A stretch of 64,000 nucleotides of DNA from Euglena gracilis (GCA_039621445.1 CP154954.1:32713455-32777454); one strand, 5' to 3'; counted from the stretch's first letter, positions 1 to 23,902 are shown. Notes: generated by a model from the sequence alone, not told the origin. Program-made: numbers and translations.

Positions 1-574
1 CTTTGGTACCAGGTGGCGGTGTGGCTGTTGTGGCGGGGGCATAGTCACCTTACTTGTTCAGGATCATGCGGTCCGTGGCTCTTTCGGCCAACCGCAACTG
101 CCGTGCTACTGCACGAGTCAGTGTGATGGCCAAGTTTCCAGTCATTTCTTGAAACTTTCGTTGTTTGGTTGTACCTAAGTAAGAGTTGGTCGCGAGGCGT
201 AGCACATCACGGAGGAGTTTGGAGGCTGTTGGCCCCGTGCACCCCCACGGGTTGAAGGCTGCCCCAATGTTCTCCCATTGGTGGCGTGCACCGATCTTCA
301 GCCTGGGATCGTTTGTGCATTTCAGCGTCCGGTAAAGTACGCTGAACTCGGGTCAAGTTCAGAGGCCATCGTGAGGTTGCCAGAATTAGCAATGAGCCAG
401 AGCAAGAAATTAAGAAAGAACTTCAAATTAGGAATTGACCCTATGGTTTCCAGGGAGAGAAAAGCAGGGACAAAAAAAGGAAAAACCCCGAGAGACAAAC
501 CTTTTAAGAAATAAATATTTTTTGAATTTAAACTTGCTTACTGCTTTAAATGGCGTTTTGAATGGACGCTGTGG

Positions 575-590
575 TTTCTGTCACTTTCAG
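575..590 (+). promoter_or_regulatory. Putative SL trans-splice acceptor of RRM paralog A
   Basis: Pyrimidine tract plus CAG 12 nt before the ATG. The same arrangement precedes the starts at 16856 (AG 16840), 21344 (AG 21324) and 35087 (AG 35076). Euglenozoan mRNAs are trans-spliced. Confidence 0.5.
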
Positions 591-602
591 GGATATTCCA
601 AC

Positions 603-3600
603 ATGGAACTCACAATCCCTGAAGCATCTACAACTATTTGTGTCGGAAACCTTCCCGACTATATGAGCAGGAATCACTCTCCAGTGAGATTTCTTGCTCT
701 TTTTTTGATTGGTTCCTGTTGTAAACTGCTCGTGAATTCCGCCTTATGTTCAAATTCGCAAACGGTGTCCAACGGTGCATCATCAATCACACCAAGGCTG
801 GACACCAGGTTGGTTATGCAAGGTTTGGAACGGCACAAGAAGCACAAGCCGCCATTGAATGGCTTGCGCAGGGCTGCTGAAAATGATATGAAGTTTTATA
901 TGAAATTTTCAACCTGACAGCTTCCCTGATGCTCACGGATACCCGATTGACGAGGACTTCCCAAACACTTTGAAAGTTTTCATGTCTTCAACTCAATTGC
1001 GCGATGCCCTTCCTGGCACCCGACCAAAGCGCCCGCTGGACAATGGTTTTGGCGCACCTGCAGCGAAATTCCCACGTTTGGGGGGAGTGCACAGAATTTG
1101 ACAACTGTTCAAATGTGCTTGTGAGAGGCCCAGGTTTCTCTGAGCACTTTTTCTGATCTGCAAAGTGTGAGAACCATGAGGAAGTCAAATCAACCTGGAA
1201 CCTCACTAATGGAAATGAACCAGTTGTGATGTTGTTTGATTTTGGTTTTTGCTTGTTCAAAAAATCGGAAGAAACAAAGAAAATTTTGTTTTTGGCAGGG
1301 ACTCTATTCTTTGGACAACTTGTCTTTGGTAAACCGTCATTGTCAAAAAAAAGGACTTCGGTGCCCTGAGGTGCTTGGGCCACCTCTTCAACCAAGCCAC
1401 CTCGTTTCACCTCATGTCAAATTCTGAAATGCCTTTTGCTGCAGCTCCTGGGTTCATTGGTGGCCGTGGTTTTGGCAAAGGTGTTGGAAAAGGCCGTGGG
1501 AAAGGTGGTGCACAGGCTGAATTTCAAGGCAATGCCGACCGGGGGTTCCTGCCAGGCTGTATTTTAGTCGGGTGCCGACCCCACCCCGGGGGGGGGGGGG
1601 CAGGCACTCCAAGGGGTACTTGTCTGTTAGTCGATCCACGGCAGTGCATCAAGTCTGTTAGTCGATCCACACCCTATTCAACCCTATTCAATAGGAATGA
1701 CCACTTTCAGTGCAAAACAGGATGTGTGACGTCATAATTTGACCATGTGACGTCATACACAAGCAAAATGATGACCGTATGACGTCATACTTGAATGTGT
1801 GACCCAGGGATGACGTCATAAGGTCCAAATCAGCTGCATATTTGACGTCATCAAAGCATAGGGGAAGAAAGGGTGTGGATCGAGTCGTTTTGCCGTGGAT
1901 CGACTAACAGACAAGTACCCTCCAAGGCCCCCCTGATCCGACCGTAGGGCACATGGCCAAAAGTGCCCTGGCACAACCCCGGCGCCGGGGAGCCAAAAAT
2001 GGCCTATCCTCAAAGGAATGTGCCTGGGCACAGACCGAAATCCGACCCCCCCCGGGGGGGTAGTGCCCAGGATTTGATATAAGGAGGGCGTACATGGTTT
2101 AGGTGGGGGGGGGTGTCCCCCACCCCCCACCCCTCCTGGCCCGCAGGGGGGGCCGGACCACCCCACCTGCCTGGGGGGTCCGGACCGACCCTGGGGACCC
2201 GGGACCCCTCCCCAAAAGGGTCATTTTTTCCTCCGGCACTTTGCGTCGAAAATTTTTGCATTTTTGGCAAATTTTTGCCCACAGAGTCCCAAAATGGCAC
2301 TTTTGGTCGTTTTGGGGGGTCAAAAATTGGTACTTGTCTGTTATCGTACGACATACCCCCCCCTTTTGGTTATGGTACGACGCCCTTTGAACGGCCAGAA
2401 TGCTTTCCCTTGGGGTCTGTTTCAGCCCTTTTGGGTGGTTTTTGGGGTTATTTGAAGGGGGATAGGGTTAGGGTTTCGAATGGCCCTGCCGTACCCCTTG
2501 GAACACACAAGGGGAAACCCCAAAGGCGGCAGACTGGCAGGGAGAAAGAAAGATAAAGCCCGCCGACCCTTCCGGCCCCAAAGGGGGATTTGCCATCCTG
2601 AACAGGCATTTTGCCCAAATTTGGCCGGATTCCAAAAAAAGGCTGAAACCGTGTTTGGGCCGATTTCGAGACTTTAAAAGTCTTAAATCTTCGCCCAAAA
2701 CACGGTTTCAAACAAGAACAGTGTTTTGGGCCAAGGTTTTAGGGGGGCCCAGGGGCGACCACGGCGCCTTTGGCGCCGCGGTCCCCGCCCCTGGGCTCCC
2801 CCTAACTCTTGGCCCAAACACAGTTCTTGACACAGAAACTTCACCAGGATGGGTCCTTACCCTAACCCCATTCCTCCCAATAACCCTATATAGGCACCGG
2901 AGGAGGAAATGAAGGCGTCGTACCATAACCAAAAGGGGGGGGTATGTCGTACGATAACAGACAAGTACCCAAAAATTTTCGGTCACCCAGACCGAGCCAC
3001 TGTTTAGGTGGGGGGGTGTCCCCCCCCCCCTCCTGGCCCAGGGGGGTCCGGACCCCCCCCCCCACCGTCCTTATATCAACCCTGGTAGTGCCTGCCTGAG
3101 CAGGCACTCTGGACCAGGGTTGGTAAAAAAAACAGCATTTTGGGCACTTTTTGGCCCACGACCTGGCAGGCACTGCCCCCCCCCCACCTGCCTAAATCAC
3201 TCCCAGACCCCCTCCCCCAATTTCAATTTCAGCCTGGTGGTGTAGCCTCCAGCCCCTCATCCGTTTATGTTGGAGGTGTACCCCATGACTGGGATGAGCC
3301 CAGGGAAGTGCCAAGTGTTTCCAGAGCACAGACGCAGCATACTTCCAACACACCCCACCATCCGTTACTTGGGGGGTCAGGCCCAGGCAATTGCTTAAGC
3401 ACTGACCAACCAACCCCCCCCCCCCCCCCGGGGTGGGTGACTGGTTTTTTCAAAGTGACTGACTGGTTTTGGGGTCGGCCAGGAGTGGGCAAAAGTGGCT
3501 TGAGTGACCCCGGCGCCAAAGGCGCCGGAAAATTTTTTTGGGCCTTAACTGGTCTAAAGTGACTGGAAAGTGGCCGTTTTTCTGAGTGGCCGACCCCCCC

Positions 3601-6600
3601 CGCCCCGGGTGACTGGCTGGTTTTTTGAAAATGAGTGACTGACTGGTTTTTAAAAAAGTGGAGTGACCCCCCCCCCCCGGGGTCGGTAAGCAATTGTATG
3701 GTCAGGCCGATCAAGATCTTCTCATGCAAAAGCAAAAATCTTCGGTCCCAACCTGCCTTTTGAGCCAAGCCCAATTGCCCGGAGAAACCAACCCACCCAA
3801 AAGGGGGGGTCCGCACCCCTCCAGTCCCGGAGAGTGACACCCCCGCTTAAGAGAGAGTGACACCCCATCCAGGCCCTGGGGGGGGGGGTGGGTGCTGGGG
3901 TTTTCAGTGTGACTGACTGGTTTTTGGCCCGGACCCCTCCCCCGGGGGGGGTTGGCAAAAAAACCACAAAACTGACCCAGCCGGAAATTTTTTTTGCAAT
4001 TTTTTTCATGTTTTGGGCCAAGTTTCCCTTGGATTCCAGAGTGACCGACCCCCCCCCCCCCCCGGGGGGGGGTCGTGGCTGACTAGCTTCCCGAAAAAAG
4101 TGACTGAAGGATGGCCAAAACGCGCACCCTAACAAAATCCCTTTGTGTGTGCACCCAGATGAACTTACCCTCACCCCCCCCCCCCTATTTGGCCCCTCCC
4201 CTAATTGGCTTATTGGGGTCCCGTTGGATGGTCCATTAGCCAATTAGGGGGGGGGTCAGGCTTATTGGCCATTGGCCGGGGTAACCCCCCCCCTAATTGT
4301 CCCCCCCCCCTAATTGGGGGTCCGAAGGAGCCCGGCCATTAGCCAAATAGAGGGGGGGGTGAGGGTAATGAAGGTGTCTGGTAGGTAAAATAGCCCCTCT
4401 GTATGTTCCACAGGGTTTGGCCAAGGGTTTTTATGCTTCTGAAATGGAAAACCATGGAGGTCGTTTCCACCGACCATATGGTCCGGCCAACCATGGTCGG
4501 CCCGACCTATTGTCAAAAGTCCTTTGAAAAGGGGGGGGTAATGCGGTTCATTGGCTACCACCTCCCTCCCCCCTAATTGAACCCCCCCCCAAATGACCAA
4601 ATGCCCCGGGGAAATTTTTTTCTACACACAAATTGTGGCTGAGCCCAGATTTCAGCCTGAAAACGTGTTCAGCCAGGGGGCCCCCCGAAGGGAATTAAGA
4701 AGTCAGACCTTGTGTCAAGAACTGTGTTTGGGCCAAGAGTTAGGGGGAGCCCAGGGGCGGGGACCGCGGCGCCGAAGGCGCCGCGGTCGCCCCTGAGCCC
4801 CCCTAAAACCTTGGCCCAAAACACTGTTCTTGTTTGAAACCGTGTTTTGGGCGAAGATTTAAGACTTTTAAAGTCTTGAAATCGGCCCAAACACGGTTTC
4901 AAAATGGGGCCTGATTTTGGCCCTAATTTGAATCAAATTTAGGCCTGGCAACCCTGATAACCCTAAAATTTCCGCCTTGGAAAATATAAAAAAATTCAGA
5001 TGGCGGCCCCATGCCGAACAAGTACCACTGACCCCCCTTAGGACCGACTTTCCGGGTTTCTGGGACCCCCCAAATGGTCAAATTTTCCTTTCCGGCGCCT
5101 TGCACCAACTTTTTTGGCATTTTTGGCAACTTTGCCAAAACAGAATTCCCGGCTCCGTGCGGATTTCCGGTGGTTGCCGTCGTGGTGGTCGGGCCGACCA
5201 TGGTCGGCCCGACCTGTGGTGGTGGTCGACCGACCTGTGGTGGTCGGGCCGACCAGGTCGGGCCGACCACCATTTTTTTGCACTACCCCCCCCCTTTTTT
5301 GCATTTTTAAGCCCCCCCCCCCCTGGTCGGTGGGTGGTCGGTGGCTGGTCGGTGGGCATAAAAATGGTCTGTGAAGGCCCCAAATCACCCGGAAATGCAC
5401 TTATGGCCAGTTCTCCCCCCCCAGGACCATGCCCTGGGGGGGTCCTGGGGGGGGGGTCTGGGGGGGTCCTGGGGGGACCTGGGGGGGACCTGGGGGAGTC
5501 CTTTGGAGGGTGCTGGGGGGGTGCTGGGGGGGTCCTTGGTGGGTCCCGCATTTTTTGGCAGAAATTTTGCAGCACAAGTTCAGGTTATTCTAAAGTGGGT
5601 ACCGCCCCCCGGTGGGTCCTGGGGGGGTCGTAGGGGGAAACTGGCCATGACTCTCACGAGAGGCAGAAAACTCCCCCGTCCACCCGATCCGAAGTTTTCT
5701 TTCAGGGGGGGTTTAAAAGTCGGCAGTTGACTCAGTAGCACAGAGTGGGTAGTTTGCCGACTAGTCGGCCAACTGGCCCCCCCCCCCTGTCTCACCGACT
5801 AGCTTAGGCGGCCAATTAGGACAGTGTTTTTTGCCACCAGTGGCATAAATTTACGCTGTGTTGTGCAGGTGGCTTTTTCAGGCATTTTAATTTTCTAGTT
5901 GTTAAGTTTTACTGGAAGTTTGCTTTCCTAATGCTCCTGTGAAATTGTTCTCTCTAGTGCAGCCCTCAGATTTGTCCACGGTTTCTTGCATGACATTGAT
6001 GTTTGCTTGTTGGAAGGTGTGCCCTGTGTGAAGTAGTTCTGGATGTCGTTCTGATTTATGTCGCTTGTATGCTGAAATTGGGGTGTTTTGCCATACATTC
6101 TGTTGTTTTTTGATTGGATTTTTGTCCAGGTGTAATTGCTTGTGGTCAATTTTTTTGTTCCTGATGCGACACTGCCAACGCCCTCTTTTTTTCAAGGAAC
6201 GTGTGCGTTGCTTGCGGTTCGCTCGCATGTTGTTTGTGAATGTCATTATATTTGATGGTGTTTCTTACAGTTGATGAATTTCTCTTTGTTTCTGTGGGGA
6301 CAGTGTTGCTTTTTTGATTTGATTTGAATTTCACCTGCTTCAGTTCTTTTATGTGTTTCTGAAAGAGAGTTGTTCCACTGGTGGCGTAATTGAGCACTTT
6401 TTGAAGCACAAATTACTGTTTTATGCCACTAGTGGCATAAAACAGTAATTTGTGCTTCAAATGTACCCTTTTTTGAGACTCCTCTTCTGTGTGCTTGGTG
6501 GATGCTGTTTTAGGGTGTGATCCCCGTGTCCCCCCCCGTGTCCCCCCCCCGTGTCCCCCCCGTGTCCCGCACTTCAGGGGGGTCCCTAGAAGGCGGCCAA

Positions 6601-9600
6601 GGCAACATGCAGCATGAATTTTTAGCCGTTTGGCATCATTTTCTACTTTTTTTTCATGGATTCTCAAGGCCATTTTGACTTCCCCCCACCCACAATCCCT
6701 TTTTTTTCACCTAGGATGGTATGGAGCTTGGCTCGGGGTCAATGTGAAATGAATTTTTGGTCCCTCAAAAAGTCACAAATTTCGTCCCGGAAGGTCCCGA
6801 AAACAGGCATGTTTCCCCCGTGTCCCCCCCCCGTGTCCCCCCCCGTGTCCCCCCCGTGTCCCGCCCCACCCCCTTACAGTTACATACCTGAAAAGGCTTA
6901 TTTTTTGGTCAACAGCTGATTGTTTTTGCCACTAGTGTCAAAAGGCGCTCTGAATGTCTGATGACGTGTCTAATTCTACTTTTCTGCCATTTGTGTCATA
7001 AAAAAGGAACGTGATCTGAAATGAAGTGTATGTTTGTATATGTTTGCGTTCGTATGAATGAAGCCAGTGACGTGCGGTTTCCTTGCCGGAATGCATTCAT
7101 CTTCGTTTTCTACCTTGCAGGTGTGGTTCAAGACCAGAAGTCGTTTGAAGCCCATCCACTAGCACGCCCCCGAGAGGAACGCAGCCATTCTCTGATTCTG
7201 CCCAAGTGGTGTTCCCGTGACATGCGCACTGAACGTGAGTGGTGAGTGTTGTCCCCCCTCCATGAAACCCCTCCATTAATTTGGAAAAGAATGGCTGCGT
7301 GGGCCGAAATGTGACAGCATGTTTCTGTGCGCCTGTGTGTGTGCACGTTGCTGTCCCAATGGAGGGAAAGGGAAGGACTCAAGGGACACTCAAAGGGACT
7401 GCTGAAGACGACCGTCAGGAATTTCTCTGTGCCACATGCTTCGCAGACAGACTGAAGGTTGGGATTCCAATGCAACCTTCCGTGTGCGTGGATTTGACAC
7501 AAATTTCTATTTTGAATACTGCGCCACCCCCCCCCCCCTTTCACACACCGCCAAAAGGAGGCCCAAGGTGAATGTGACGATAATCCACTGAGCCTCAATA
7601 CCATTTAGGCAATTTGCAAGACCCACTCCATCAGTCAGGTTTTGTCCGCATTCAACAATCAGTCCAGCGTTGCCAAGGACAATATATTGCCTGTGTGATA
7701 TGATCATCTGGGATGATGGGACTGGGGAATTTTTTGGATGGTTCAGAATGTCCATGCACAGATGGATAATGGGAGAACACATTTTGGAGAGCAATCCGGA
7801 GCCTCATGCAAAAACACCAGTGTATGCACTCTTCATTACCATGTGCGCTCGCCAGTTTTTCATTCTTCCTTTCCATCACAGCTTCCAATCCCCCTCCGCA
7901 TGTTCGCTGGGACGCATTGCACCAAGTGCAGATGATCAAGGTATGCTCTGGTCCATGGAAACAGAGTGAGCAGTGTCCTATGACCTGAAATTTCCCTTCC
8001 TGGGTACATTTTTAGAGGCCTGGAGCAAGATGCATACTGGCGTGTAAAATCCCATTTCATGGGAAAAATGATGCCCACACAGAAGGGTGCAACAAGGACG
8101 TACACACGAAACATGTCACGCACATCGTCCACAGAGCGCTTGTGAGTCAAAAACTTTATGCCACTAGTGGCATAAAGTTTTGTCCTAATTGGCCGCCTAA
8201 GACTAGCTGCCGACTAGGCCAACCGACCAATTGGCGTCGTCGGTCGGCCAAACCCTAACCCTAACCAATTGGCTAGTCAGCCGACTAGTCGGCCGACTAG
8301 CCAGCCCCCCCTTCCAGCCTGCCACCAAACAGTTGAATGGTCGATCGACCAGCTGAAGGGTCGGTGACTGATGCGTGAAAAAGTGGTGCCTGCAGGGGAC
8401 CAGCTACCCCAAAGAGGCGCCCAACTAGGGTTAATACACATTGGGGGACCCTCGCTCGGCGCCTTTGGCGCCTCGCTCGGGTCCCCCAATGTTTTTAACC
8501 CTAGTTGGGCGCCTCTTTGGGTTCGCTGGGTCCCCTGCAGACACCAGTTTAACGACGTTGAGGGGATGGGATGGGACAGTTAGGGATGGAAACTTGACCC
8601 TAACCCTACTCCTTTAAATAACGTCATCAATTTTTCAAGTTCTGAATTGCAGCGGCCTTCGGCCGCTGCGCGGGCTTCGGCCTTCGGCCGATGCACGGCC
8701 TTCGGCCAGGCGGCCTTCGGGGCGCATGGCGGTAGATTGGCAGGGGGGGGGTAGTCGGTCGACTAATGGTCGGTAGCTAGTTGGCGAGACGGGGTGGGGG
8801 GGTATTGGGTTGTTGGCCGACTGGTTGGTCTGAATTGCAGCGGCCTTCGGCCGTTGCGGTGGCCCTCGGCCGCTGCGCGGCCTTCGACCAGGAGGCCTTC
8901 GTGGCGCATGGCAGTAGACTGGGGGGTGGGGGGGGGAGTCGGCCGACTAATGGTCGGTAGCTAGTGGGCGAGACGGGGTGAGGGGGGGAGTCGGCCGACT
9001 AATGGTCGGTAGCTAGTGGGCGAGACGGGGTGGGCAGGGATGGATGGGAAGCCCTTCGGTATTGAGGTAGGTGGTAGGGGGGGGTCCCGACCACCCCCCC
9101 CCCCCTAGGGGGGTAAGGGGGGAGGGGGGGGGCACGGACCACCCCCCCCCCCCCCTAGTTGTTGGGAGGGGGGGTCCGGATCCCCCCGCCCCCCCCTCCT
9201 TTACAGGTGCCAAAAATAGCAGAAAATTTTCTTCCGGCGCTGCGCGCCGGAAAATGAGCAAAAACACCCCTTTTTGCTGACTTTTGGACATATTGCCCTT
9301 TTTTTGATGTGTTGGTGTTTTCCCCAAAAAAATTGTTCAAAAATTTCAAAAAACGAGCATTTTTGGATCGATTTTCAAAGAAAAATCAGGGATTTTTGAC
9401 CGATTTTGACCCGATTTCCGGCCCTTTGCCCGTCCATGAAATCGAAAAATTTTCGGCCCCCCCTCAGTTTCGAGGTAGGAGGGGGGGGTCCGACCCACCC
9501 CCCCCCCCCTCCGTGTCGGGAGGGGGGGGTCCGACCCACCCCCCCCCCCTCAAGGCTTCCCATCCATCCCTGGGGGTGGGGGGGTATTGGGTAGTCTGAC

Positions 9601-12600
9601 TACCCACTCTAATATACTAACGGGTCAGTACCGCCGACATTTGAAGAAAATCCCATGCAAACAAGTCGGTGGCTGGTCGGTGGTTATAAACATGGTCTGT
9701 GGCGGGCCCAAATCACCCGGAAATGGTCCGGATGGGTCCAAATAAGTGTCTTACGCCTAAATAAACACCCCCAGATGGAAATCTTTGGTCGGTGGGGGGT
9801 CAGTGGACCCTTGATGGGGGTCCGGAGGGGTAAAAAAACAATGATGAAACAGGGATTACATGAAAATCCTTTAGAAATGCAAGCAATGTGCATCACGAGA
9901 GGCAGGAAACTCCTCCCTCCACCCCCATCCGAACGTCAAATAACAAAATCCCTTCTGAGTTGGCAACATGCTCGGGGGATAAGTAGTTTTTGTGGCTCAC
10001 TTTTTCATAGGCGGGGGGGGGGGCTCCGCCCCCCCCCCCCCCGCACCCCCCCCCTCAAATAACAAAATCCCCTCTATGTTGGCAACATACTTGGAGGGCT
10101 AAATCCTTTTTGTGCAAAATTTTGCAATTATATTGAAAATCCGATGGGGAGTGGTGTTCTTTTGCCAAAAGTGGCCCAAAATGGGCATTTCCCCCCCCAA
10201 GTTTTTGCATATTCACCCCGATTGGTGGGTTCTGGAGTCATTTAAGTGGGTTTTGACTGGTTTTGGGGTGATTTGGACAAAAAAAAATTTCAGGGGGGGG
10301 GGCGTAAATTTCCAGAAGGGGGGGGGTAGTGCAAAAAAATGGTGGTCGGGCCGACCAGGTCGAGGTCGGCCCGACCACCACAGGTCGAACATGGTCGGCC
10401 CGACCATTGGTCGGGCCGACCACCTGGTCGGGCCGACCATTTCGGGCCGACCACCACAGCGACCACCACCGGAAATCCGCTCGGGGCCACATTGGCCAGA
10501 ATTCCCCAAATAATACTCCCAGGATATTTTGGTCCACCAAAGTCCTCCCGAAGGGGGAAGGGGGGGGGTATTTGGCGAAAATTTTCGTATTTGTATGTTT
10601 GGTTGTGAAATGCAAATGGCAAAATTATCCTTAAACCCCCCATAGTCCCCCTGGCTTTATATGTAAATTTTTTTCGTTGTTTTGGATGATAATATTCATC
10701 AAGTTTCTACTTGGCCTCCCAGGGGGGGGGGGGGGCAAGTAGAATGTCCAGGGGGCTCCGCAAAAATTTTGGGTGTTTGGAGTTCGGCCCAACTTTAGGC
10801 CTTACTCAAAGAGGGTTAGGTGTAAAAGTTAGGCCGAACTCCTAACCCAAACCCTACTCCATCAGTAGCGCAAAAATGTTTTTGACCCCCTGGCTGGGGC
10901 AAGTGGAATCTTGTTGCCGATTATTTATCAAAGGCATTTACAAGGTTTGGCAATTTGATTAATGTCGCAATGGTGCTCCTTGTGATATTTGGGAATTTCC
11001 AAATTGTTTCATTATAAAACAATGTCAACGGAAGGCTGGCAGGTGTGATGGACACATGGCACCCATTTCCAACAACCAAGCGGAGATTCAAAGTGGCTCT
11101 TCTCTTCAATTGACTGCCCTCCAGTCCCTGTTTGAAGGATTTGGAACAATCACCAAAGTGCAGCTCACTCGTGGAAGCAACCCAGTTGGGAACACCCAGG
11201 GATGTTTGCAGTGGAGGCTGTTTCTCATCGATTCCATTGATAGGGAAAAGGTAATGACCCATTCTGTAACAACTGAGCGTTATACGCTTGCACTGCTCAA
11301 GAGACCTCGATGACGATTGAGGTTTTTCAAGTTGTTGGTTCACAATCATCGCAAATGAAAGATGTGGTTGACTGAAAATGTCGTTGTGACATTCCAAGGA
11401 GGAACCTGCTGCAGCAATGCAAAAGTGTGCTATCGAGTGAAGGCTTTTCTAAACTCAGAAGACCCCCGGCGGGGTCACAGACCAGAAATTTTTTTTAAGT
11501 TTCATGACCCGGTGGATGGGTCCCGGCTGAACCCCCTGGGGGGGTGGGGGAAGGGCGAGTGGGAACCATGCCCCCCAGGGATGATGGGAAGCCCTTCGGT
11601 ATTGAGGTAGGTGGTAGGGGGGGGGTCCCGACCACCCCCCCCCCCCTAGGGGGGTAAGGTGGTAGGGGGGGGTCCGGACCACCCCCCCCCCCCTAGATGT
11701 TGGGAGGGGGGGTCCGGACCCCCCCACCCCCCCTCCTTGACAGGTGCCAAAAATAGCAGAAAATTTTCTTCCGGCGCGCAAAATGAGCAAAAACACCCCT
11801 TTTTGCTGACTTTTGGACATATTGCCCTTTTTTGATGTGTTGGTGTTTTCCCCCAAAAAATTGTTCAAAAAAATTCAAAAAATGAGCATTTTTGGATCGA
11901 TTTTCAAAGAAAAATCAGGGATTTTTGACCGATTTTGACCCGATTTCCGGCCCTTTGCCCGTCCATGAAATCGAAAAATTTTCGGCCCCCCCTCAGTTTC
12001 GAGGTAGGAGGGGGGGGGGTCCGACCCACCCCCCCCCCCCCGTGTCGCGAGGGGGGGGGTCCGACCCACCCCCCCCCCCCCTCCGTGTCGGGGGGGGTCC
12101 GACCCACCCCCCCCCCCTCAAGGCTTCCCATCCATCCCTGATGCCCCCCCGAGCTATTCCCATGGGGCGGGCGGGATTAGGTCACTGTCATAGCACTTTT
12201 TATGAAGAAAGTCCAAAAAGTGCAGTCCAAAAAAGCGCAGGCCAAAATTGACGTTTTTTTGGACGTTTTCAAAAAGCACTTTTTGTCAAAAGTGCTCAAT
12301 ATTGACCATTTGGAATAGCTCGGGGGAGTATGGTGCCCCGCTGGAGGCAGGGTTTTCTTCTATTCGCGCCGATGTTTTTTTCGGACCCCAAAATTGACCA
12401 CAAAGGTGCCCCCCCCCCCCCCCGGAAGCCGAGTGTTTTGGTCCAGACCCCCCCCCCCCCGCTGGGTCCTAAAAAACCCTCTGACACAGATGGGCTGGAG
12501 GCGTTTCGGTTTTCAGTGCGAAGTGCCGAAGAGAAATGCAAAAGAAACCTCATTTCCACCTCGGCTCACAGCGCCGGAGGAAATTTTTTCCCAGTCTGGG

Positions 12601-12961
12601 GGTCCCCCGGGGTCTAACTAGTCCATTTTTTCCAGTGTCCAGCAAAATGGCTAGCCACTGGATCCACTGAGTTCCTCAAGAAATGGCCTGTTCACAACAG
12701 GCGACATTTCCATGATGGTTTACTGGCCAAAAACCACAAAGCCTGCTGCTTGCTTTACCTGCCGAATTTGTCACTGTCAGTCGATTTTTGTTCAGAATCA
12801 GGCACCTGGACACTGAAGCCTGCATCTCTGATGCCATTGCATTCATCCACTTCACAACCCCAGAGGAGGCCCAAGGCGCCATCCAGAGCATGAACAACTA
12901 CCCGCTGGATGAAACCCGTCACCTCGTGGTGCGGGGCAACACCAGCAGCCCACGTATCTAG
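603..12961 (+). CDS. Two-RRM RNA-binding protein with Gly/Arg-rich linker, paralog A (7 exons)
   Basis: Exons 603-664, 724-873, 918-1088, ~1431-1509, 3242-3297, 11112-11193, 12836-12961. Protein: MELTIPEASTTICVGNLPDYITAREFRLMFKF..GHQVGYARFGTAQEAQAAIEWL..GGRGFGKGVGKGRGKGG..SVYVGGVPHDWDETALQSLFEGFGTITKVQLTRGSNPVGNIAFIHFTTPEEAQGAIQSMNNYPLDETRHLVVR..TAG. Two sets of RNP2/RNP1-like motifs; colinear with paralog B. Confidence 0.9.
665..723 (+). other. Nonconventional intron, position shared by both RRM paralogs (B: 16912-16991)
   Basis: A: gagCAGGAA...TTCCTGttgta. B: atcCAATGG...CCATTGcccac. Both give AT|A (Ile) in frame. Confidence 0.88.
1615..1919. mobile_element. Merlin-like MITE
   Basis: TIR GGTACTTGTCTGTTAGTCGATCCACGGCA; 8-bp TSD ctccaagg; internal TGACGTCA repeats. 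Confidence 0.8.
2068..3084. mobile_element. hAT-like MITE family 2, interrupted by 2329-2969
   Basis: Ends CAGGATTTGATATAAGGA / TCCTTATATCAACCCTG; TSD gtagtgcc. Confidence 0.88.
2329..2969. mobile_element. Merlin-like MITE with ~55-bp TIR
   Basis: TIR begins GGTACTTGTCTGTTATCGTACGACATACCC; TSD caaaaatt. Confidence 0.85.
3384..3700. mobile_element. hAT-like MITE family 3
   Basis: CAGGCAATTGCTTA...TAAGCAATTGTATG; TSD gtcaggcc; internal GTGACTGACTGG repeats. Confidence 0.88.
4470..5790. repeat. Element built of TGGTCGGGCCGACCA palindromes; related inverted sequence at ~9590-10530
   Basis: 5140-5300 is the reverse complement of ~10315-10510. Ends not defined. Confidence 0.6.
5803..8201. mobile_element. 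TIR element with 5-bp TSD, superfamily unassigned
   Basis: 21-bp TIR CTTAGGCGGCCAATTAGGACA; TSD actag; repeated palindrome TTATGCCACTAGTGGCATAA. Confidence 0.8.
9035..9572. mobile_element. hAT-like MITE family 1
   Basis: TIR CAGGGATGGATGGGAAGCC; TSD ggggtggg. An empty version of the site is visible at ~8786-8809. Confidence 0.9.
11194..12835 (+). other. Nonconventional intron absent from paralog B
   Basis: accCAGGGATG...CATCTCTGatgcc; joins GN|IAFIHF in frame. Confidence 0.85.
11576..12140. mobile_element. hAT-like MITE family 1
   Basis: Same body and TIR; TSD atgccccc. Confidence 0.9.
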
Positions 12962-14912
12962 GCACCAGCTTGTTTTTGGCTTGCTTCTCTTGAATGGTGG
13001 AGGGAGCATAAAGAAACTCAACTTGTGGAGATCTGTTTGCCCAAAAGACATTTTTTTTCAGCCCAGAAACATGTCCGCCCACATAAAATATTTCACTGCA
13101 TCCTGGCAGACCCCCTTTGAGGGAGGGGGCTGGACTGCAACTGGCAAAAATTGGCCAGTGGACTTTCTTGTGAACCCCTGGACAGCCAGTGAAAAAAAAC
13201 CACCATTTTTTAAACCGAAACCTTCCTTAAGGGTCAGGGGTCATGGGGGATATGTGCCAAAAAAATTGCGAAAATGCCAAAAGTAGCACCCTTTTAAAAA
13301 AAGTTCGGCGCCTTCAGCACCGAAAAGTAACCCCCCCCCCTCCCACTTATACCCCCCCCCCCCTACTTATAAACCCCCCTCGGGCCGACCAACCAAACCG
13401 GGACTTATAACCCCCCCCCCCCCGGGGAAGAAAAACGAAAGCCACCAGGGACAATTTTTTTCGGACGCAAACCACTAAAAGTTGATTTTTTGGCAGTTTT
13501 TTTTGAGACCAACCATCTTCAAAAATGCCATTTTTGTCCAAATTTGGCAAAAATTGTCAATTTGGGGGGGGGTTTCGGGGTCATTTTTTGGGGGTCGGAT
13601 TTTCACCAACAATTCCGGGACTTAAACCCGCCCCACTTATAACCCCCCCTTCGGCCGACCAACCAAACCGGATCCATTAAACTTCGGGGGGTTTATCAGT
13701 GGGGGGGGGGTTATATCCCACCCCCAGACCCGCCTGCCCTGCCTGCCCCCCGGGGGGGGGGTCCAAGGCTAAAAAAAAACCCCTGCTTCCGGCACTTTGC
13801 ACCAGGCGCACAACTTCAGATATGTGCCCCCCCAGGCACCCTGAAAAAGTCTTTTTGGTCCACTTTGAAAGCTTTATCTGCAAGCCGGCATAGGTCACTG
13901 CTTGGGGGGCATACCCAGAAAAAGGCATGGATACTTGAACTTTGAGGAGACACCAAATCTGAAGGAAATATACGACAGTTTGGCCTTTTTGGCAGGTTGG
14001 ACCAACCTCGGGGAAAAGTGAGTGGTCCCCCGGACCCCCTCCGGGGCGCCCCGCCAAGGGGGGGGGTGGAGGGGACCCCTCCCCCCGATCTTTTAAAAAA
14101 CCCCTGGCCGGAAGCAGGGCACCTCCCAAGGTACTTTGGAAAATGGATGGACAGTTCCCTTCCTCTGTTCCCCCTCGTATTTTAAAGAGAAGCCTGCTCC
14201 TCTCCTCTGCATTGCAAAGCACTCAAATTGAGACGCCATAGCACAAAGCCAAGAATTATGATCAAGGTATTTCACATATGCAAGCGACGGAGGTTGTATT
14301 CTGCCAAAGATACCTCTGAAACTCAATCGAGACCGTGATGTTACTTTTGTTTTCAGTTTCCTTCCTCGTCTGGGAAGCCCAAAGAAAAACCATGTGGGAT
14401 TTGACGCATGTTGATGGCAAAAGGGTCACTCTCAAACCCATTTGATTTCCTCTGCATGATGTCTTTTTCTCGCGGAAAGCATTGTTCAAATTTCATCAAT
14501 GGGAGTAGAAAGTGAAAACATTATTTCCAGTCAAAAAGAAAGCGAAGCTTTCGTTGGGGGACAGTGTTTTTTGGTTTAAAACGCTGTTGTTAAGTTCTCC
14601 ATCCATTCATTTTTTTTGAGATGTATCTTTTCAATGGCTGCAGTCACCACTTGCCGCAACTGGTGCTGCACGCCATCCCGAACCCTTCTGAACTCCCTCT
14701 TTCCTCCGTTCGTTTGCTGTGCGTTTTAGGCCACAATTATCGCCTGATGCCTGAAGAAGGCCTCACTGTTCGGACGCACCATCACTGATGAAGGCGACGG
14801 CTCACAGGCACCACCGTCGATCCTCTCACCCCTTTGTTTTGTGCAGTTCGCATTGCTTCGCGCGAGGTCCAGGGATGAACAGGTTTCCCATGGTTGGCAG
14901 GTTGGCGGGCTT

Positions 14913-15358
14913 CAGGCTTTTGCTTAAGGGATTGCAGTACCCCCCCGGGGGGGGGGGGGCTGGACTGCAGCTAGTCCAAATTTGGCTAGTGGGTTTTCTA
15001 GCAGACCCCCCCCGGGGGGGGGGGTCTGCTAGCAGGGCTAGCTAGTGGAAATTTTTTTTTCCAGTGACCGGCGCGAAGCGCCGAAAATTTTTTTGGGGAC
15101 CCCCAAAAATGGCCAAAAATGCCCGTTTTTGGCCATTTTTGGGAATTTTTGGAACAAAATCAGCCAAAAACCTGTTAAAAACCTCATTTTTCCTCCGGCG
15201 CGCAGCGCCGGAGGAAAATTTTTTTTCCAGTCCGGGGGGGCCCCAGGCCCCCCCCCCCCGGGGGGAGGGGGGGGTCTAGCTAGTCGACTTTTTCCAGTGT
15301 CTAGCCGATTGGCTAGCCAGTACCCCCCCCCCCCGGGGGGTCCTTAAGCAAAAGCCTG
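14913..15358. mobile_element. hAT-like MITE family 4
   Basis: TIR CAGGCTTTTGCTTAAGG; TSD gcgggctt; internal CTAG repeats. Confidence 0.9.
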
Positions 15359-15404
15359 GCGGGCTTTCACCAGGCATCCGGGCTTTCGGGGGGGTAGTCC
15401 AACC

Positions 15405-15770
15405 CAGGCAATTGCTTAAGCACTGACCAACCCCCCCCCCCCCCCCGGGGGGGTGGGTGACTGGTTTTTTCAGAGTGACTGACTGGTTTTGGGCCCGGAC
15501 CCCCTCCCCCCCCCCCCCGGGGGGGGTCGGCCAGGAGTGGGCAAAAGTGGCTTGAGTGACCCCGGCGCCAAAGGCGCCGGAAAAATTTTTTGGGTCTAAA
15601 ATGGCCTAAAGTGACTGGAAAGTGGCCGTTTTTCTGAGTGGCCGACCCCCCCCCCCCCCCCCCGGGGGGAGTGACTGGCTGGTTTTTTGAAAATGAGTGA
15701 CTGACTGGTTTTTAAAAAAGTGGAGTGACCGCCCCTCCCCCCCCCCCCGCGGTCGGTAAGCAATTGTATG
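15405..15770. mobile_element. hAT-like MITE family 3
   Basis: Same ends and body; TSD gtccaacc. Confidence 0.88.
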
Positions 15771-16855
15771 GTCCAACCACAACCCCTTTGACCGGAGGGG
15801 TCTGAACCCCCCCGGGTATTAGGTGAACAGTAGGGGGTCTGCTATGGGTAGGGTATCCCATTGTTTCAGGACCACACCACCCCAGGGGAGTGGCCAGGGC
15901 AGAACGGGAAACGGCCAAACAGCCAGGGTGGTGGGTGGGGGGGTTTGAAGCAAAAAAATGCCATTGAAAATCCAAAAAATTTCCCAGAGAAAAAATGTCC
16001 ATAAAATTTGACTGTGCCAAATTTTGGTCCACTTTTTTGACCTTCGTTTCACCCCCCTCCTAAGAATACCAATTTTTAACCCTGAAAATTTTGAGTTTTT
16101 TGTGAAAAAATGTGGTTTTCCATCAAAAAGTCATGTGTTTTGGGTTCATTTTTCAAAAAAAAATCAAAAAATTTTCCGGCCAAAATCCTTATTTTCCCGA
16201 AATCGGTGAAGATGCTGTGGTGGGTGGGGGGCAGGGATTTTTTTTAAGTTTGGACCCCGGGGGGGGGGTCGGGTGGGTGGGTCCGCCGGACCCCCTCCCC
16301 CCCCAGGGGGGGGGTCCCCCCCCCCGGTCTTAAAAAAAACCCCTGGTGGGGGGTGGACCCCCCACTCCACCAGGCCTTCCCGTTCTGCCCTGGAAGTGGC
16401 TGACTGGTTTTTTCGGAGTGACTGACTGGTTTTTGGCTCTAGACCCCCCCCCCCGGAGGTGGGGTTTGGCCAAAATCCTTTTTTGAAAAGTGAATGACTG
16501 GCTTTTTGAAAGTAGAAAGTGACCCCCCCCTTGGGGGTCGGCAACCAATGGTATGGTGTGGACCTCCCCCCACCCCCCTCCTCGGCAGGTTCCAAAAATA
16601 GCAAATAGGGCTTTCGTATTTAGTGAGCCTTGTTGCATACCCCCCCCCCGTCCCGTGGTCCAATCCCCTCCTCCCCAGCCTTCCCCCCACAGCTCTGTCC
16701 CGCTCTCCTCGTTTGACTGGAGAACTCCCCCCTGTTCATCCTTTCCAGTGGGTCGTCAAAAAACGCCCTGATTAGCACACTTCAAAAGCTTTTATTCAAC
16801 ACGGTTTCAGTTGCATTTCCACCCTCATTTGCTCTCACAGGTACGCAACAATATT

Positions 16856-19800
16856 ATGGCATTGGTTGAAGCATCGACCACCATCTGCGTCGGAAACCTC
16901 CCAGACCACATATCCAATGGCCCCCCATTTGTGAAAGGAAACCTTTTGCTTTCCTTCAGGCTGATGTGACAGTTGGGTGACCATTGCCCACAACACCGCG
17001 TGAATTCCGCTTGATGTTCAAATTTGCTGCTGGAGTGCAACGATGCATCATCAACCATATGCAGGGGACCACAGCAATTCTTCTGATGTGGGCTTTTGGC
17101 ACCTTGGCTGGAGACATTCACATCACTTGAGCCGAAGTGGACCCCATGCCTGATGGGATCCAGCCAGCCAGCAGCCCCCAGACCCCCCTCCGCCCCTTCG
17201 ACGAGTTGTCGTTTTCCAGCCGTCCTTTGGGCGGCTGGACGGTGATGGATTTTTGGCTTTCAGGGGTGCAAAATTGGCCAAAATGGGCAAATAACGGGTC
17301 GGCTTTGGGCTGGCCAGGCAAATTCTGGATCGAAAAGTTGATTTTTTTTGCATAATTGGCAGTTTTTTGGGCATTTTTGGCCTTTCCCAGGTTCGACCCC
17401 AGGTCGGCCCCAGGTCGGCCCAGTTCCAGCCAGGGACCCCCCCCTAACCCCCCCTATTGGCCTATTGGGGGGTCAGCCTTTTTCCAGCCAGCCCAAAATT
17501 TTCAGCCTTTGAGGTGGACCCCCCTGGGGGTGGGTCACCAAGTGACGGGGGGTCTTTTGGACTTTCACTCCAGATTTTGGCTCAAGAATGCTGACCAAGC
17601 TGGATTGGGCTTTTGGGGGACAAGCTGGACCCTCCTGCATCCCAGGATTGGGGGGCCCAGCAATTTTTCTTTGGCGGGTTTCTCAGGGGTGCTCAGGCTT
17701 TTTAATTTGGAAGACCCCCCCCCCCCCCCCCCGGAACTCCGGGGTGGACCCTGGGAGGTTTGGCCATTGCCAAAAATTTTGGGGGGAAATGCCCTCAGAT
17801 GGCCCATTTGGGGTGGGGGGGGTTGCGCTTCGGCATCCCTGCACACAGCGTCCACGGGGCGCTTGCTGAGTCCCCTGGCACCACCAAGTCAGGGCACCAG
17901 GTCGGTTATGCAAGGTTTGGCACACCGCAAGAGGCACAGGCAGCAATTGAGTGGCTCTGCCAGGGTCATCCTCACCTTCCAACCGACCAAACACAGGTTC
18001 AAAGCCAGAGGCAGAACCATGTTTGGTTCAGCCCACGACGTCCTCTCTCTCAATTCAAGAAAAGTGATGACTTTTTTGTCTCACCAGGTTTTCCAGTTCA
18101 TCCCGATTTTTCTCAGGCCATTTTCCAGCCAATCCGGCCCCTTTATTTTGGGCTATTCTTGGGGTCGGAGAACCGATGTCAACACCTAAAATGAAGCTTT
18201 GGAACCCAGGAGGACTCCCCTCTGGTGAGCTGGTCCTCGCATCATTTGAATGTGAGTTTCTGCATCGTTTGGACGGAATTCCTCCAAGGTTTCGGGCGGC
18301 AGTGCGAGCATGCCCCTGCCTCTCACGGCTACCCTCTCGATGAGGATTTCCCCCAAACGCTGAAGGTCTTCATGTCCTCCACGCAGCTGCGGGATGCTCT
18401 GCCGGGCACTGGGATGAAGCGGCCCCTTGGCCAGGCTTCTTTTAAACCCCTCATCTTCTTCAGTCTTTTCGGGGCGGGATTATTCACGTCTGTCACCTCC
18501 ACCCGGCCTGACTGCCGAGCGAATCCCAACACCGGCCCTTTTTGGGTCACCCCAACAGCCGGGAGGGCCGAATCCCTTGCGGGGGCCGACCGTTCGGGGG
18601 GCTTCATCTTTCTTCCCCCTGGCAGGCACCGGGACCCAATAATGACCCTGCGGGGAGTTCGCTGGCGGCAGTAAAAATTTTTTCAATGACCAAGAAATTG
18701 GTCAAATATTTTTGTTCCATTTTGGCCACGACAGAAAATTTTTGGGAAATGTCCGGAGATTTCCCTTGTTTTGTATTGACCGCTAAAATTTTTTTCTTTT
18801 TGCACCATTTTTTGGCCATTTTTTTTTACCACCAATGCCCCCTGGTGTTGGAAGGCGCCCTTGTGAGAATCCTGAACGGGTGGCATTGTCCTCGAAGAAA
18901 ATCAGAGTGGTTCACCTAAATCGTTCTGTGTGATTCTGTTTTGCATTGCCACGTGCTTGAAAAAAGCCTTCCGCGGACAATGGATTCGGTGGCCCGGCGT
19001 TCAAGATTCCCCGTGGCGGTGCCTTTGGTGGCTTTGGGGGCGGCTTTGCCTACGGGGCCCCGGCGGGCTTCCCCGGCGGCCGCGGGCTGGGCAAGGGCCG
19101 GGGCCGGGGCAAGGGTGGTGCAGTGGCGAGCCCCACGTCTGTCTACGTCGGCGGGGTGCCCCATGATTGGGATGAGAGCAGGACGGTCGCCCCATTCCCA
19201 TTCCCGGGGGGGGTGACTCCGAGGAATCAGTCCGCGTGTCCTGCAGCGCTGTCGTTTTGCCGTTGTTTCCCCCCATCCGTTAGCTCAGCAGAAGATTTTC
19301 AAAACTCTCGATATCTGGCTAGTTTTTTGATATCCGCATCTTTTTCACACCCGTGGGCCCTGATCCGGCCGGCACATCGGAATAGTTATCCCGGGGATCC
19401 CAATGGGAACCCCCAATCGGTTTCCTGTTTTGGGGCCAAATCACGGTTTTCTATAGGCCCAAGTGAGGGGCCATCTTCCGTCCAAATGATGCGGGGGTGC
19501 GAAGGTGCCCTGTTGGTCCCCGGTTCCCATTTCGCCCATCACAATTGGCGGCTGCCGTCCTGTCCCCGACTGCTCTGCAGTCTCTCTTTGAGGGGTTCGG
19601 CACCATCTCCAAGGTGCAGCTGACCCGAGGCTCCAGTCAGGTTGGGCGTTTGCTGTGCATTTTTGGTCGGTTCGGCCCGCCGATGGTGCCCGTCAGGCCT
19701 TGCCGACCCCAACCTGGTTCCAACCCGGTGGGCAATATTGCCTTCATTCACTTCACCTCCCCGGAGGAGGCCCAAGGGGCCATCCAGAGCATGAACAACT

Positions 19801-19862
19801 ACCCCTTGGACGAGACCCGGCACCTTGTGGTTCGGGCAAACACCAGCGCGAAGGGCCTTTAG
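16856..19862 (+). CDS. Two-RRM RNA-binding protein with RGG linker, paralog B (7 exons)
   Basis: Exons 16856-16911, 16992-17058, 17883-~17965, ~18307-18428, 18976-19175, 19568-19634, 19722-19862. Protein: MALVEASTTICVGNLPDHITPREFRLMFKF..GHQVGYARFGTPQEAQAAIEWL..GGRGLGKGRGRGKGG..SVYVGGVPHDWDETALQSLFEGFG..GNIAFIHFTSPEEAQGAIQSMNNYPLDETRHLVVRANTSAKGL*. The exon 3/4 junction was not resolved. Confidence 0.9.
17059..17882 (+). other. Nonconventional intron absent from paralog A
   Basis: atgCAGGGGAC...GTCCCCTGgcacc; joins NH|TKSGHQ, matching uninterrupted NHTKAGHQ in A. Confidence 0.88.
18429..18975 (+). other. Nonconventional intron absent from paralog A
   Basis: ggcCAGGCTTCTTTTAA...TTGAAAAAAGCCTTccgcg; joins KRPL|DNGFG, identical to A. 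Confidence 0.85.
19635..19721 (+). other. 87-nt in-frame nonconventional intron absent from paralog A
   Basis: agtCAGGTTGGG...CCCAACCTGgttcc; joins RGS|NPVGN. Flanking 8-mers gctccagt / gttccaac (5/8). Confidence 0.85.
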
Positions 19863-21343
19863 GCATGCACCCAATCTGTGTCATTTGTTTGGCCATTCTC
19901 AAAGCTACAGGGAGTAGTTATCTTTTTTAAGTGGCCATTTTGAGACTGTACGGCTGACAGGTCATGTTGGAGTCATGCCCCCCCAGAAAGCTAACCATGA
20001 GGGGAGTGTGTCAAATTTTGATTTTCAAAAAGCACAACCCAGGAACGAGGGGGATAATGTAGTGCAAAATCCTGAATGAATCCAACCCACACTTGCTGTT
20101 GACATCACGGAAAAAAAATCTTTCTTTGTGCCGTAACCAATATGGAAAGTTTTTTTTGTAACCATCTGCTCTGCAACGTTCTTGCCGGTGCCGCCTTGCC
20201 AACTTGAAAGTCTGTGTTGCAACAGCTGCGCCATTGTTATCCTGTTCATTTTTTGATTGAAAAAATGTGCTGGGGCAAAAAGCTGCGACCACCGTGGACT
20301 TTTTTTTCTGCGCGGTGGCACCGGCGACTCGGCACGCTGTCCAAAAGTTGCCAACAACACTTGCACTGGGTTCCTGGGCTTTTCTTTTTTTCAAAATGAT
20401 GTGTCCTCGGATATTTTTTTTTGCGTGCAAATAAATTGTCAACACTTTGTGATTGAAAAAAGAGCTTAAATTGCACAAAAAACCATATTTTTGTTGGTTG
20501 GAGGCAAAATTGCACCACACAACACTTTTATGGGTCCCCCAGGTGAGAATAAATCATTTTTTAATTCGATTTTACGTTAAGGGGGCGAAAATGGCCAAAA
20601 TGGCTTTTGTTGAGGACCCCCCCCCCTGTCGAGGGTTGACATAAGGGGGGCACGTACAATCACCCCCCCTTGTTGGTGGCTTTGAGAATCGGGTTGTTTT
20701 TGGCCTAGTCGTGCGACCACCCCCTGATTGGGGTTGTAGGTTGGGGGGTGCGCATGGCCACCCCCCGTGGTCGGGGTTATAGGAACCCAGTTGGTTGCAG
20801 GGGGGGGGGCGGGTAGAGCTCGGGGCCTCCAATTTTGGATAAAAATAACAGCCTGGCTGGATTTGGGTTTTTTTGCCTGTTTTGAAGGTGCTGCCGGGCC
20901 CCCCCCCCCCCCCAACCCCCACCCACCTTTTTTTCCCGGCCCCCCCCCCCCCAAGGTTCTTGTCCGGACCACCCCCACCCCCACGTGCCAAGGGAGGTCC
21001 AGGCCGACCCCAGCAGGGGGGTCACCCGGCAACCCCCCAAAAGGTCAATTTTTTTCTTTTGGAGCTTTGCGCCGAATTTTTTTTTGCATTTTTGACAAGT
21101 TTTTGCCCAAACAGTTCCCAAAATGGCACTTTTGACCGTTTTGGGCGGTCGGTCAAAATTTTGTCCTGGCGCTTCGCCAAAAGTTTGCCACCCAGACCAA
21201 AAATCGGTCACCCAGACCACGCCACTGTTCGGGTCCCCCCCCCCAGCTGCCCTTAAATCGAAGCTTCCAGGGGCTTTAAAAAAGGCCTGGATGTAAAAGG
21301 TTCCTTTTTTTTTTGATCCTTCAGGTTAAACAATACTGTTGAC

Positions 21344-23508: not shown

Positions 23509-23902
23509 CAGGGTTCGATATAAGGAGGGCGTACATGGTTTAGGTGGGGGGGGTGTCCCCCCCCCCCCCCCCCCCCCACCTGCAAGGGGGGTCCGGACCG
23601 ACCCTCGGGGGCAAAAATTGACCCCCCCCAAAAAGGGTCATTTTTTTCCTCCGGCGCTTTGCGCCGAAAATTTTTTGCATTTTTGGCACATTTTTGCCCA
23701 AAAAGTGCCCAAAATGGCACTTTTGGTCGTTTTGGGGGGTCAAAAATTTTCGGCCCGGCGCTTTGCGCCGGGCCGAAAATTCGGCCACCCTGACCGCGCA
23801 CCTGTTTAGGTGGGGGGGTGTCCCCCCCCCCACCCCCCCCCTCCTGGCCCGCAGGGGGGGGGTCCGGACCACCCCCCCCACCTGTCCTTATATCGAACCC
23901 TG
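23509..23902. mobile_element. hAT-like MITE family 2
   Basis: TIR CAGGGTTCGATATAAGGA; TSD gccatggg. Confidence 0.9.

Follow-up and report, generated by a model that had tools for sequence, protein, structure and literature searches.

Nonconventional introns of euglenids account for 71.8% of all introns in Euglena agilis, and their acquisition and removal have been a question since the 1990s. An origin from MITEs, miniature transposable elements with inverted repeats, was proposed for them in 2014 (Milanowski et al. 2014, PMC3935182), and a 2024 review describes repeats resembling target-site duplications as frequent at their junctions (PMC11282704). In 2016, eight-nucleotide direct repeats were described at the junctions of the strain-specific intron 4 of gapC in E. 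agilis ACOI 323, and repair of a double-strand break was put forward as its source (PMC4770533). Knock-in genetics then yielded a code for nonconventional introns of Euglena, 5′-N3-CDG...CH′G-N5-6|R, and mutations placed beside the motifs did not block splicing; that study still terms the origin of these introns unclear and sets "slidable" introns aside (Nomura et al. 2025, PMC12501133). Here, we describe an intron at positions 1510-3241 of a 64,000-nucleotide stretch of Euglena gracilis DNA (GCA_039621445.1, CP154954.1:32713455-32777454; hereafter the window), which interrupts one of two paralogous genes, A and B. We consider it highly likely that a small non-coding DNA transposon landed in paralog A after the A/B duplication and that it is now spliced out exactly by the euglenid nonconventional system.

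Compared with the described systems, this intron shares with euglenid nonconventional introns its non-GT-AG borders, a CAG at positions +4 to +6 and a CTG at positions -8 to -6, as well as a purine after the 3′ cut, complementary ends, precise removal, and a euglenid host (PMC12501133, PMC3935182). What distinguishes it is that it retains a near-intact 8-bp duplication and faces an empty paralogous site, such that its birth can be read directly. Like gapC intron 4 of E. agilis, it is a recently gained nonconventional intron with 8-nt direct repeats at its junctions, but whereas gapC intron 4 is a difference between strains, the contrast here is between old paralogs and is accompanied in the window by a mobile class of elements sharing both its ends and its 8-bp duplication (PMC4770533). 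Introners of Micromonas, Aureococcus, dinoflagellates, and Fritillaria are likewise non-autonomous, inverted-end DNA transposons that become introns and whose duplication helps to restore the message; they are removed by the spliceosome (standard or adapted) from sites that are partly element and partly duplication (PMC11282704). In contrast to introners, the borders here are not GT/GC-AG and follow the euglenid CAG/CTG ruler. The 8-bp duplication and the short inverted ends starting with CAG(G) are also those of hAT elements and MITEs such as maize Ac/Ds. Ac/Ds can reportedly be spliced from maize transcripts, as Giroux et al. are said to have described in 1994. Splicing of Ds is imprecise and uses cryptic spliceosomal sites; removal of 1510-3241, by comparison, is exact. 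The locus is thus a clean further case of a known kind of nonconventional intron and adds support to a transposon origin. The features at issue are as follows.

593-12965, + strand: paralog A, which encodes an RRM-like protein whose linker is rich in Gly and Arg, delimited by RNA joints, with a spliced-leader loose end at 590.
1505-1512, + strand: left copy of the target-site duplication, GTGGTGCA, of which 1505-1509 are kept in the mRNA and 1510-1512 form the N3 spacer of the intron.
1510-3241, + strand: nonconventional intron of 1732 nt, placed according to the published code (gca-CAG...CTG-gtggt|G).
1513-3236, + strand: inserted element of 1724 bp, with inverted ends CAGGCTGAA (1513-1521) and TTCAGCCTG (3228-3236).
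3237-3244, + strand: right copy of the duplication, GTGGTGTA, of which 3237-3241 form the N5 spacer and 3242-3244 (gta, Val) are exonic.
16842 (approximately)-19862, + strand: paralog B, delimited by RNA joints.
19115-19122, + strand: unoccupied matching site in paralog B, with GTGGTGCA present once, inside exon 18976-19175.

RNA evidence came from raw-read runs of two studies (X21 and X24) and from contig sets X15 and X17, both of which behave like RNA, aligned on positions 301-20200 of the window. All four carried the same joint, 1503 to 3236, which skips 1732 nt, that is, the 1724-bp insert plus 8, and at which seven letters fit on either side. The joint was covered by 400 reads in X21 (175+225, with 133 start places), by 54 reads in X24 (0+54, with 35 starts), and by one contig each in X15 and X17 (depth 4632 and 4959, respectively). 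X24 is strand-specific and assigned the transcript to the + strand. Depth in X21 fell to about 1-2 inside the intron, compared with 60-160 in the bins holding exons, indicating that removal is efficient. The spliced message reads aaa ggt ggt gta gcc, which gives an in-frame KGG|VASS.

Eight registers, from 1504-3235 to 1511-3242, are compatible with this joint; they begin with GG, GT, TG, GG, GT, TG, GC, and CA and end with CT, TG, GG, GT, TG, GG, GT, and TG. AG stands at the 3′ end of none of them, and no mRNA-compatible register has GT/GC-AG borders. Only register 1510-3241 (gca CAG...CTG gtggt | G) presents N3-CAG...CTG-N5 followed by a purine, and 1510-3241 is a euglenid nonconventional intron fitting the published code. 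Two canonical in-frame candidates, GT(1508)...AG(3245), giving KG|ASS, and GC(1510)...AG(3232), giving KGG|PGGVASS, were also considered, and neither is the RNA junction. The initial annotation of this stretch, made from its sequence alone, had predicted a cut at 3/5 offsets with KGG|VASS in frame; the RNA joint agrees with that prediction, 1510-3241 being one of the eight equivalent registers, and excludes a differing cDNA junction. Its 3/5 offsets turn out to be those of the published Euglena code (PMC12501133), and the annotation named neither a euglenid host nor the nonconventional class.

The host is a euglenid, since a spliced-leader tail precedes both genes: loose read ends ATTTTTTTTC were found before 590 (301 reads) and before 16840 (462 reads) in X21, and these ends agree with TATTTTTTTTCG, the conserved 3′ terminus published for the spliced leader of E. 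gracilis (PMC4778363). An early guess, a dinoflagellate introner, was dropped on the basis of this Euglena-type leader and of the absence of AG acceptors in the RNA. GT-AG ends are found at none of the 12 coding introns of paralogs A and B. Eight of the 12 conform to N3-CAG...CTG-N5, the remaining four are near variants (A3, with 3+4 spacing; A5 and B4, with CTT; B1, with CAA/TTG), and 10 start with CAGG.

The organization of the insert was exactly as initially described. Reading along the + strand, the order is aaag, GTGGTGCA, CAGGCTGAA, 1706 bases, TTCAGCCTG, GTGGTGTA, gcctcc. The inverted ends are complementary at nine of nine positions, and the two arms agree at 13 of their first 20. GTGGTGCA and GTGGTGTA abut these ends directly and are identical at seven of eight positions, a match that two given 8-mers would reach by chance with a frequency of 25/65536. 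Their sole mismatch (C>T) lies in the exonic part of the right copy, where paralog B has C, and all eight intronic spacer bases (gca + gtggt) equal their exonic partners. The terminal 9-mer CAGGCTGAA occurs four times in the window, compared with 0.85 expected.

Paralog B provides the unoccupied state of the site. The exons of A defined by RNA joints are approximately 593-664, 724-865, 934-1088, 1431-1509, 3242-3297, 11112-11193, and 12836 onward, and those of B are approximately 16842-16911, 16992-17058, 17883-17957, 18324-18428, 18976-19175, 19568-19634, and 19722 onward. Exon 725-862 of A gave weak PDB matches to the RRMs of Sex-lethal and ELAV (E 0.12-0.33), and a Pfam scan of two single exons gave no match. 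Through the site corresponding to the insertion, B reads aag ggt ggt gca gtg gcg agc, with GTGGTGCA once and uninterrupted, and no RNA joint inside exon 18976-19175 was present among the 15 listed of 245 joints. When the exons were joined by RNA coordinates, the spliced frames of A and B amounted to 233 and 236 amino acids, identical at 194 of 229 aligned residues. Their silent sites are saturated (proportion of silent differences [pS] 0.794; fourfold-degenerate difference 0.745 over 102 sites; nonsynonymous divergence [dN] 0.10), and their homologous introns can no longer be aligned. Flank matches at the other 11 introns of A and B reach only 1-5 of 8. Because the silent sites are saturated yet the duplication still matches at seven of eight positions and its spacer at eight of eight, the comparison supports a gain in A after the duplication, rather than a loss in B, and an insertion that is probably far younger than the duplication itself. 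An intron specific to A and gained there had both been proposed in the initial annotation, and both proposals hold. Its term "recent" stands in the sense of much younger than the A/B duplication; the age is only relative, and four nested repeats entered the insert later or came along with it. Paralog B also has a private nonconventional intron, 17059-17882 (824 nt, atg-CAGGGGAC...GTCCCCTG-gcacc|a), at a point where A is continuous (787-792); its flanks match at only two of eight positions, so that it is either old or lost from A.

A scan of the window for perfect 9-bp inverted repeats starting with CAG and lying within 5 kb of each other returned 110 pairs. The flanking 8-mers of these pairs fell into two groups, with 0-5 of 8 matches in 97 pairs and 7-8 of 8 in 13, including nine without mismatch. 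Shifting the flanks by 8 or 16 left no pair among the 110 with as many as six matches, and 20 Markov shuffles contained a mean of 0.05 pairs with 7-8 of 8 in-register flanks. These 13 comprise the present intron and, as judged by their ends, at least six other families (CAGGGATGGATGGGAAGCC, CAGGCTTTTGCTTAAGG, CAGGGTTYGATATAAGGA, CAGGCTTCTTTTTA, CAGGCACCTA, and CAGGGCAGAACGGGAA); two of the pairs are mutual copies in a segmental duplication. Distinct CAGG elements number 12. For example, a 1552-bp element at 53020-54571, with ends CAGGCACCTATAG and a perfect duplication GTTGGGTG, lies in one unit of a tandem gene family. Its empty paralogous site is at approximately 43313-43350 (97% identical over 291 nt), and GTTGGGTG is present once in four other units (43313, 47883, 50411, and 58195), a direct contrast between filled and empty sites. 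Empty counterparts were also present in the window for two elements nested in the present insert (N1 and N2, below) and for T45250 and T35363. As 13 elements carry 8-bp duplications and several face empty paralogous sites, the window shows that the class of CAGG-ended, 8-bp-duplication elements is numerous and mobile in this genome.

The duplications left by these elements are not random. Position 6 is a purine in 10 of the 12 distinct CAGG elements, the splicing code requiring a purine after the cut; it is G in nine of the 12, as is position 1, and GTG at positions 4-6 is common to four duplications (GTGGTGCA, GTAGTGCC, GGAGTGGC, and GGGGTGGG). This bias may reflect a preference for certain target sites, one that falls together with the purine required by the splicing code. 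Elsewhere in paralog A, intron A5 (3298-11111) is packed with repeats and measures 7814 nt, compared with 392 nt for its counterpart in B; among these repeats is an element of 538 bp (9035-9572) flanked by a perfect duplication, GGGGTGGG. Nonconventional introns apparently offer later insertions a place to land.

The insert at 1513-3236 has itself received, or arrived with, the following repeats.

1553-3094, + strand: repeat R4 (CAGGCTGT...AGTGCCTG), about 204 bp without its inserts, with a second copy at 28738-28968.
1615-1919, + strand: nested element N1, whose perfect inverted repeat GGGTACTTGTCTGTTAGTCGATCCACGGCA spans 30 bp and whose 8-bp duplication CTCCAAGG, also perfect, lies at 1607-1614 and 1920-1927.
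2068-3084, + strand: nested element R3, with CAGG ends (CAGGATTTGATATAAGG/CAGGGTTGATATAAGG) and GTAGTGCC as its 8-bp duplication, present without mismatch at 2060-2067 and 3085-3092.
2329-2969, + strand: nested element N2, inside R3, whose perfect inverted repeat spans 56 bp and whose 8-bp duplication CAAAAATT is likewise perfect.

The site of N1 is empty in the R4 copy (28738-28965). R3 has family copies at 23509-23902 and 35363-35750, both of which are empty at the site of N2, and N2 is in turn interrupted by a 191-bp palindromic repeat (2644-2834) that is 98% identical to 4711-4901. The intron is therefore long (1732 nt) because other elements are nested inside it. Without N1 and R3, the insert amounts to 386 bp, and its outer arms alone to 182 bp; at landing, the element would thus have been of MITE size, between 182 and 386 bp, and the intron would have grown about fivefold by later insertions. 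R4 may have been part of the element at the time of insertion; several candidate ends were checked for a duplication of its own, and none turned up. Nested R3 (2065-3089) and R4 (1550-3099) themselves fit N3-CAG...CTG-N5|G and could be cut out separately, and joints for the separate removal of either were absent among the 15 listed of 245 joints.

How the insert arose admits other explanations. Presence in one paralog and absence from the other give no direction by themselves, and the private intron of B at 17059-17882 indicates that gains or losses have occurred in both copies; the intron could accordingly be ancestral to the A/B duplication and have been lost precisely from B, for instance by recombination with cDNA. 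The duplication of an insertion that old should, however, have decayed, which is what the shared introns show (1-5 of 8 matches), whereas seven of eight positions still match here, and all eight in the spacer. Selection is not expected to have held the spacer, because published mutations adjacent to the motifs left splicing intact (PMC12501133). We therefore regard a loss from B as very improbable. Repair of a staggered double-strand break, capturing filler DNA and leaving 8-nt direct repeats with no transposition involved, is the explanation that Milanowski et al. proposed in 2016 for a recent nonconventional intron with 8-nt repeats (PMC4770533), and it would fit an insert whose outer arms are single-copy in the window and whose interior is a patchwork of other repeats. 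Against it, the insert ends in a perfect 9-bp inverted repeat starting with CAGG and set exactly against the direct repeats; together with 12 other CAGG-ended elements in the window with 7-8 of 8 flank matches, several of them facing empty sites, this is the signature of a transposase and not of random filler. Break repair appears unlikely to us, albeit less so than a loss from B, and we infer that transposition, and not another process, made this insert.

Several observations nevertheless weigh against a transposon insertion into A. No second copy of the outermost arms (1513-1552 and 3095-3236) exists within the 64-kb window, so that this particular element is only putatively mobile. R4 occupies most of the interior and lacks a duplication, which makes the original extent of the element uncertain. 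In the minimum-energy fold of 1480-3270 (ViennaRNA), the terminal 9-bp helix is absent, and the end-to-end duplex energy of -25.3 was reached by 228 of 500 shuffles, results that favor neither side. Furthermore, positions 19114-19122 of B and the left copy in A (1504-1512) share ggtggtgca exactly despite the saturation of silent sites, a coincidence estimated at about 1 in 100. Outside these objections, scans of metagenomes with 24 nt of the left arm and with 26 nt of the upstream exon returned no matches in either case, and thus neither an empty-site allele nor a second copy. DNA runs X1-X14 contain 0.63-0.72 of the sampled words, which is no proof that they carry the insertion because the interior repeats are also found elsewhere. 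A final objection is that no transposase was found: of the 114 stop-to-stop frames of 130 amino acids or more in the window, eight were scanned, and none gave a Pfam match.

This last result also bears on the superfamily of the element, which had been called a hAT insertion in the initial annotation. Transposon insertion into an exon and removal as an intron were upheld, and hAT membership was not, with no transposase found in the window. The traits that recall hAT are the 8-bp duplication, which matches at seven of eight positions here and at eight of eight in nine sister elements of the window, and the terminal sequence. The end consensus of hAT elements is YARNG; the CAGGC end of the 1513-3236 element agrees with it at four of five positions, namely the first four bases, and sister families starting with CAGGG agree at all five. 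Classical hAT elements begin in the same way as these CAGGG families. The P, Merlin, and Zisupton superfamilies produce 8-bp duplications as well, and no hAT transposase or dimerization domain was found in the frames scanned, such that a transposon of a superfamily other than hAT is a possibility worth retaining, although the several CAGGG sister families make it the less favored one. On the grounds of duplication length and CAG(G) start, hAT-like is a reasonable label for the element, its membership in the superfamily being unproven.

An insertion of a CAGG-ended transposon into A, our preferred explanation, would have proceeded as follows. A transposon with CAGG...CCTG ends would have entered the Gly-rich linker exon of paralog A and created an 8-bp duplication. 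Splicing would recognize the CAG three bases inside the 5′ cut and the CTG five bases inside the 3′ cut, and the cut would thereby remove the element together with exactly one copy of the duplication, returning the mRNA to its pre-insertion length and frame. Removal would be scarless because the offsets, 3 + 5, equal the length of the duplication, and with length and frame restored, the insertion would have been tolerated from the start as an intron. The message would be restored base for base, except for a later C>T change (Ala to Val), and the intron would then have expanded to 1732 nt as N1, R3, and N2 landed inside it.

We also infer a causal link between the 3/5 rule and the 8-bp duplication. 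A trace of the same register is seen at the 11 older introns of A and B, where in-register flanks match at 32 of 88 positions (the better-matching register being used for A3), compared with a mean of 21 and a maximum of 28 at 20 offsets (binomial P ~0.006). The purine at duplication position 6 in 10 of the 12 distinct CAGG elements is also in keeping with such a link. Our search of the literature found no work linking the 3/5 spacers to an 8-bp duplication, nor any on CAGG-ended, 8-bp families in Euglena, with supplements and subscription journals lying outside that search. In a broader form, on which our judgment is evenly balanced, the 3-nt and 5-nt spacers would exist because their sum is the 8-bp duplication of a single CAGG-ended superfamily, splicing would be scarless excision at the RNA level, and most euglenid nonconventional introns would be decayed insertions. 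We give only a very slim chance to the further idea that splicing inherited its cutting machinery from the apparatus with which the transposon recognizes its own ends.

The two transcripts displayed other features. Intron A6 (11192-12836) has two junction forms, one skipping 1642 nt and the other 1643 nt, the latter with an intervening T (230 reads in X21), and an A>G difference at 12913 is present in about two thirds of reads; together, these look like two alleles or near-identical copies. Further joints lie past the stop codon in both paralogs, and in A (12966-14262 and 14302-14634) these two introns have ends off the CAG/CTG code in the usual register. The B transcript jumps from 19862 to sequence outside the aligned stretch (589 reads, one loose end). 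At the homopolymer tracts 10026-10054 and 17715-17733, RNA reads terminate by the hundreds in long stretches of C, and G and C homopolymers are constant in repeats of the window.

Taken together, this locus unites an empty paralogous site, a transposon-ended insert, a readable 8-bp duplication, and RNA proof that the insert plus 8 nt is removed, and it suggests a simple reason for the 3/5 spacer rule of euglenid nonconventional introns. If that reason is true, every element of this class would be a working intron from the moment it entered an exon, and most of the hundreds of thousands of nonconventional introns of euglenids would be decayed insertions.

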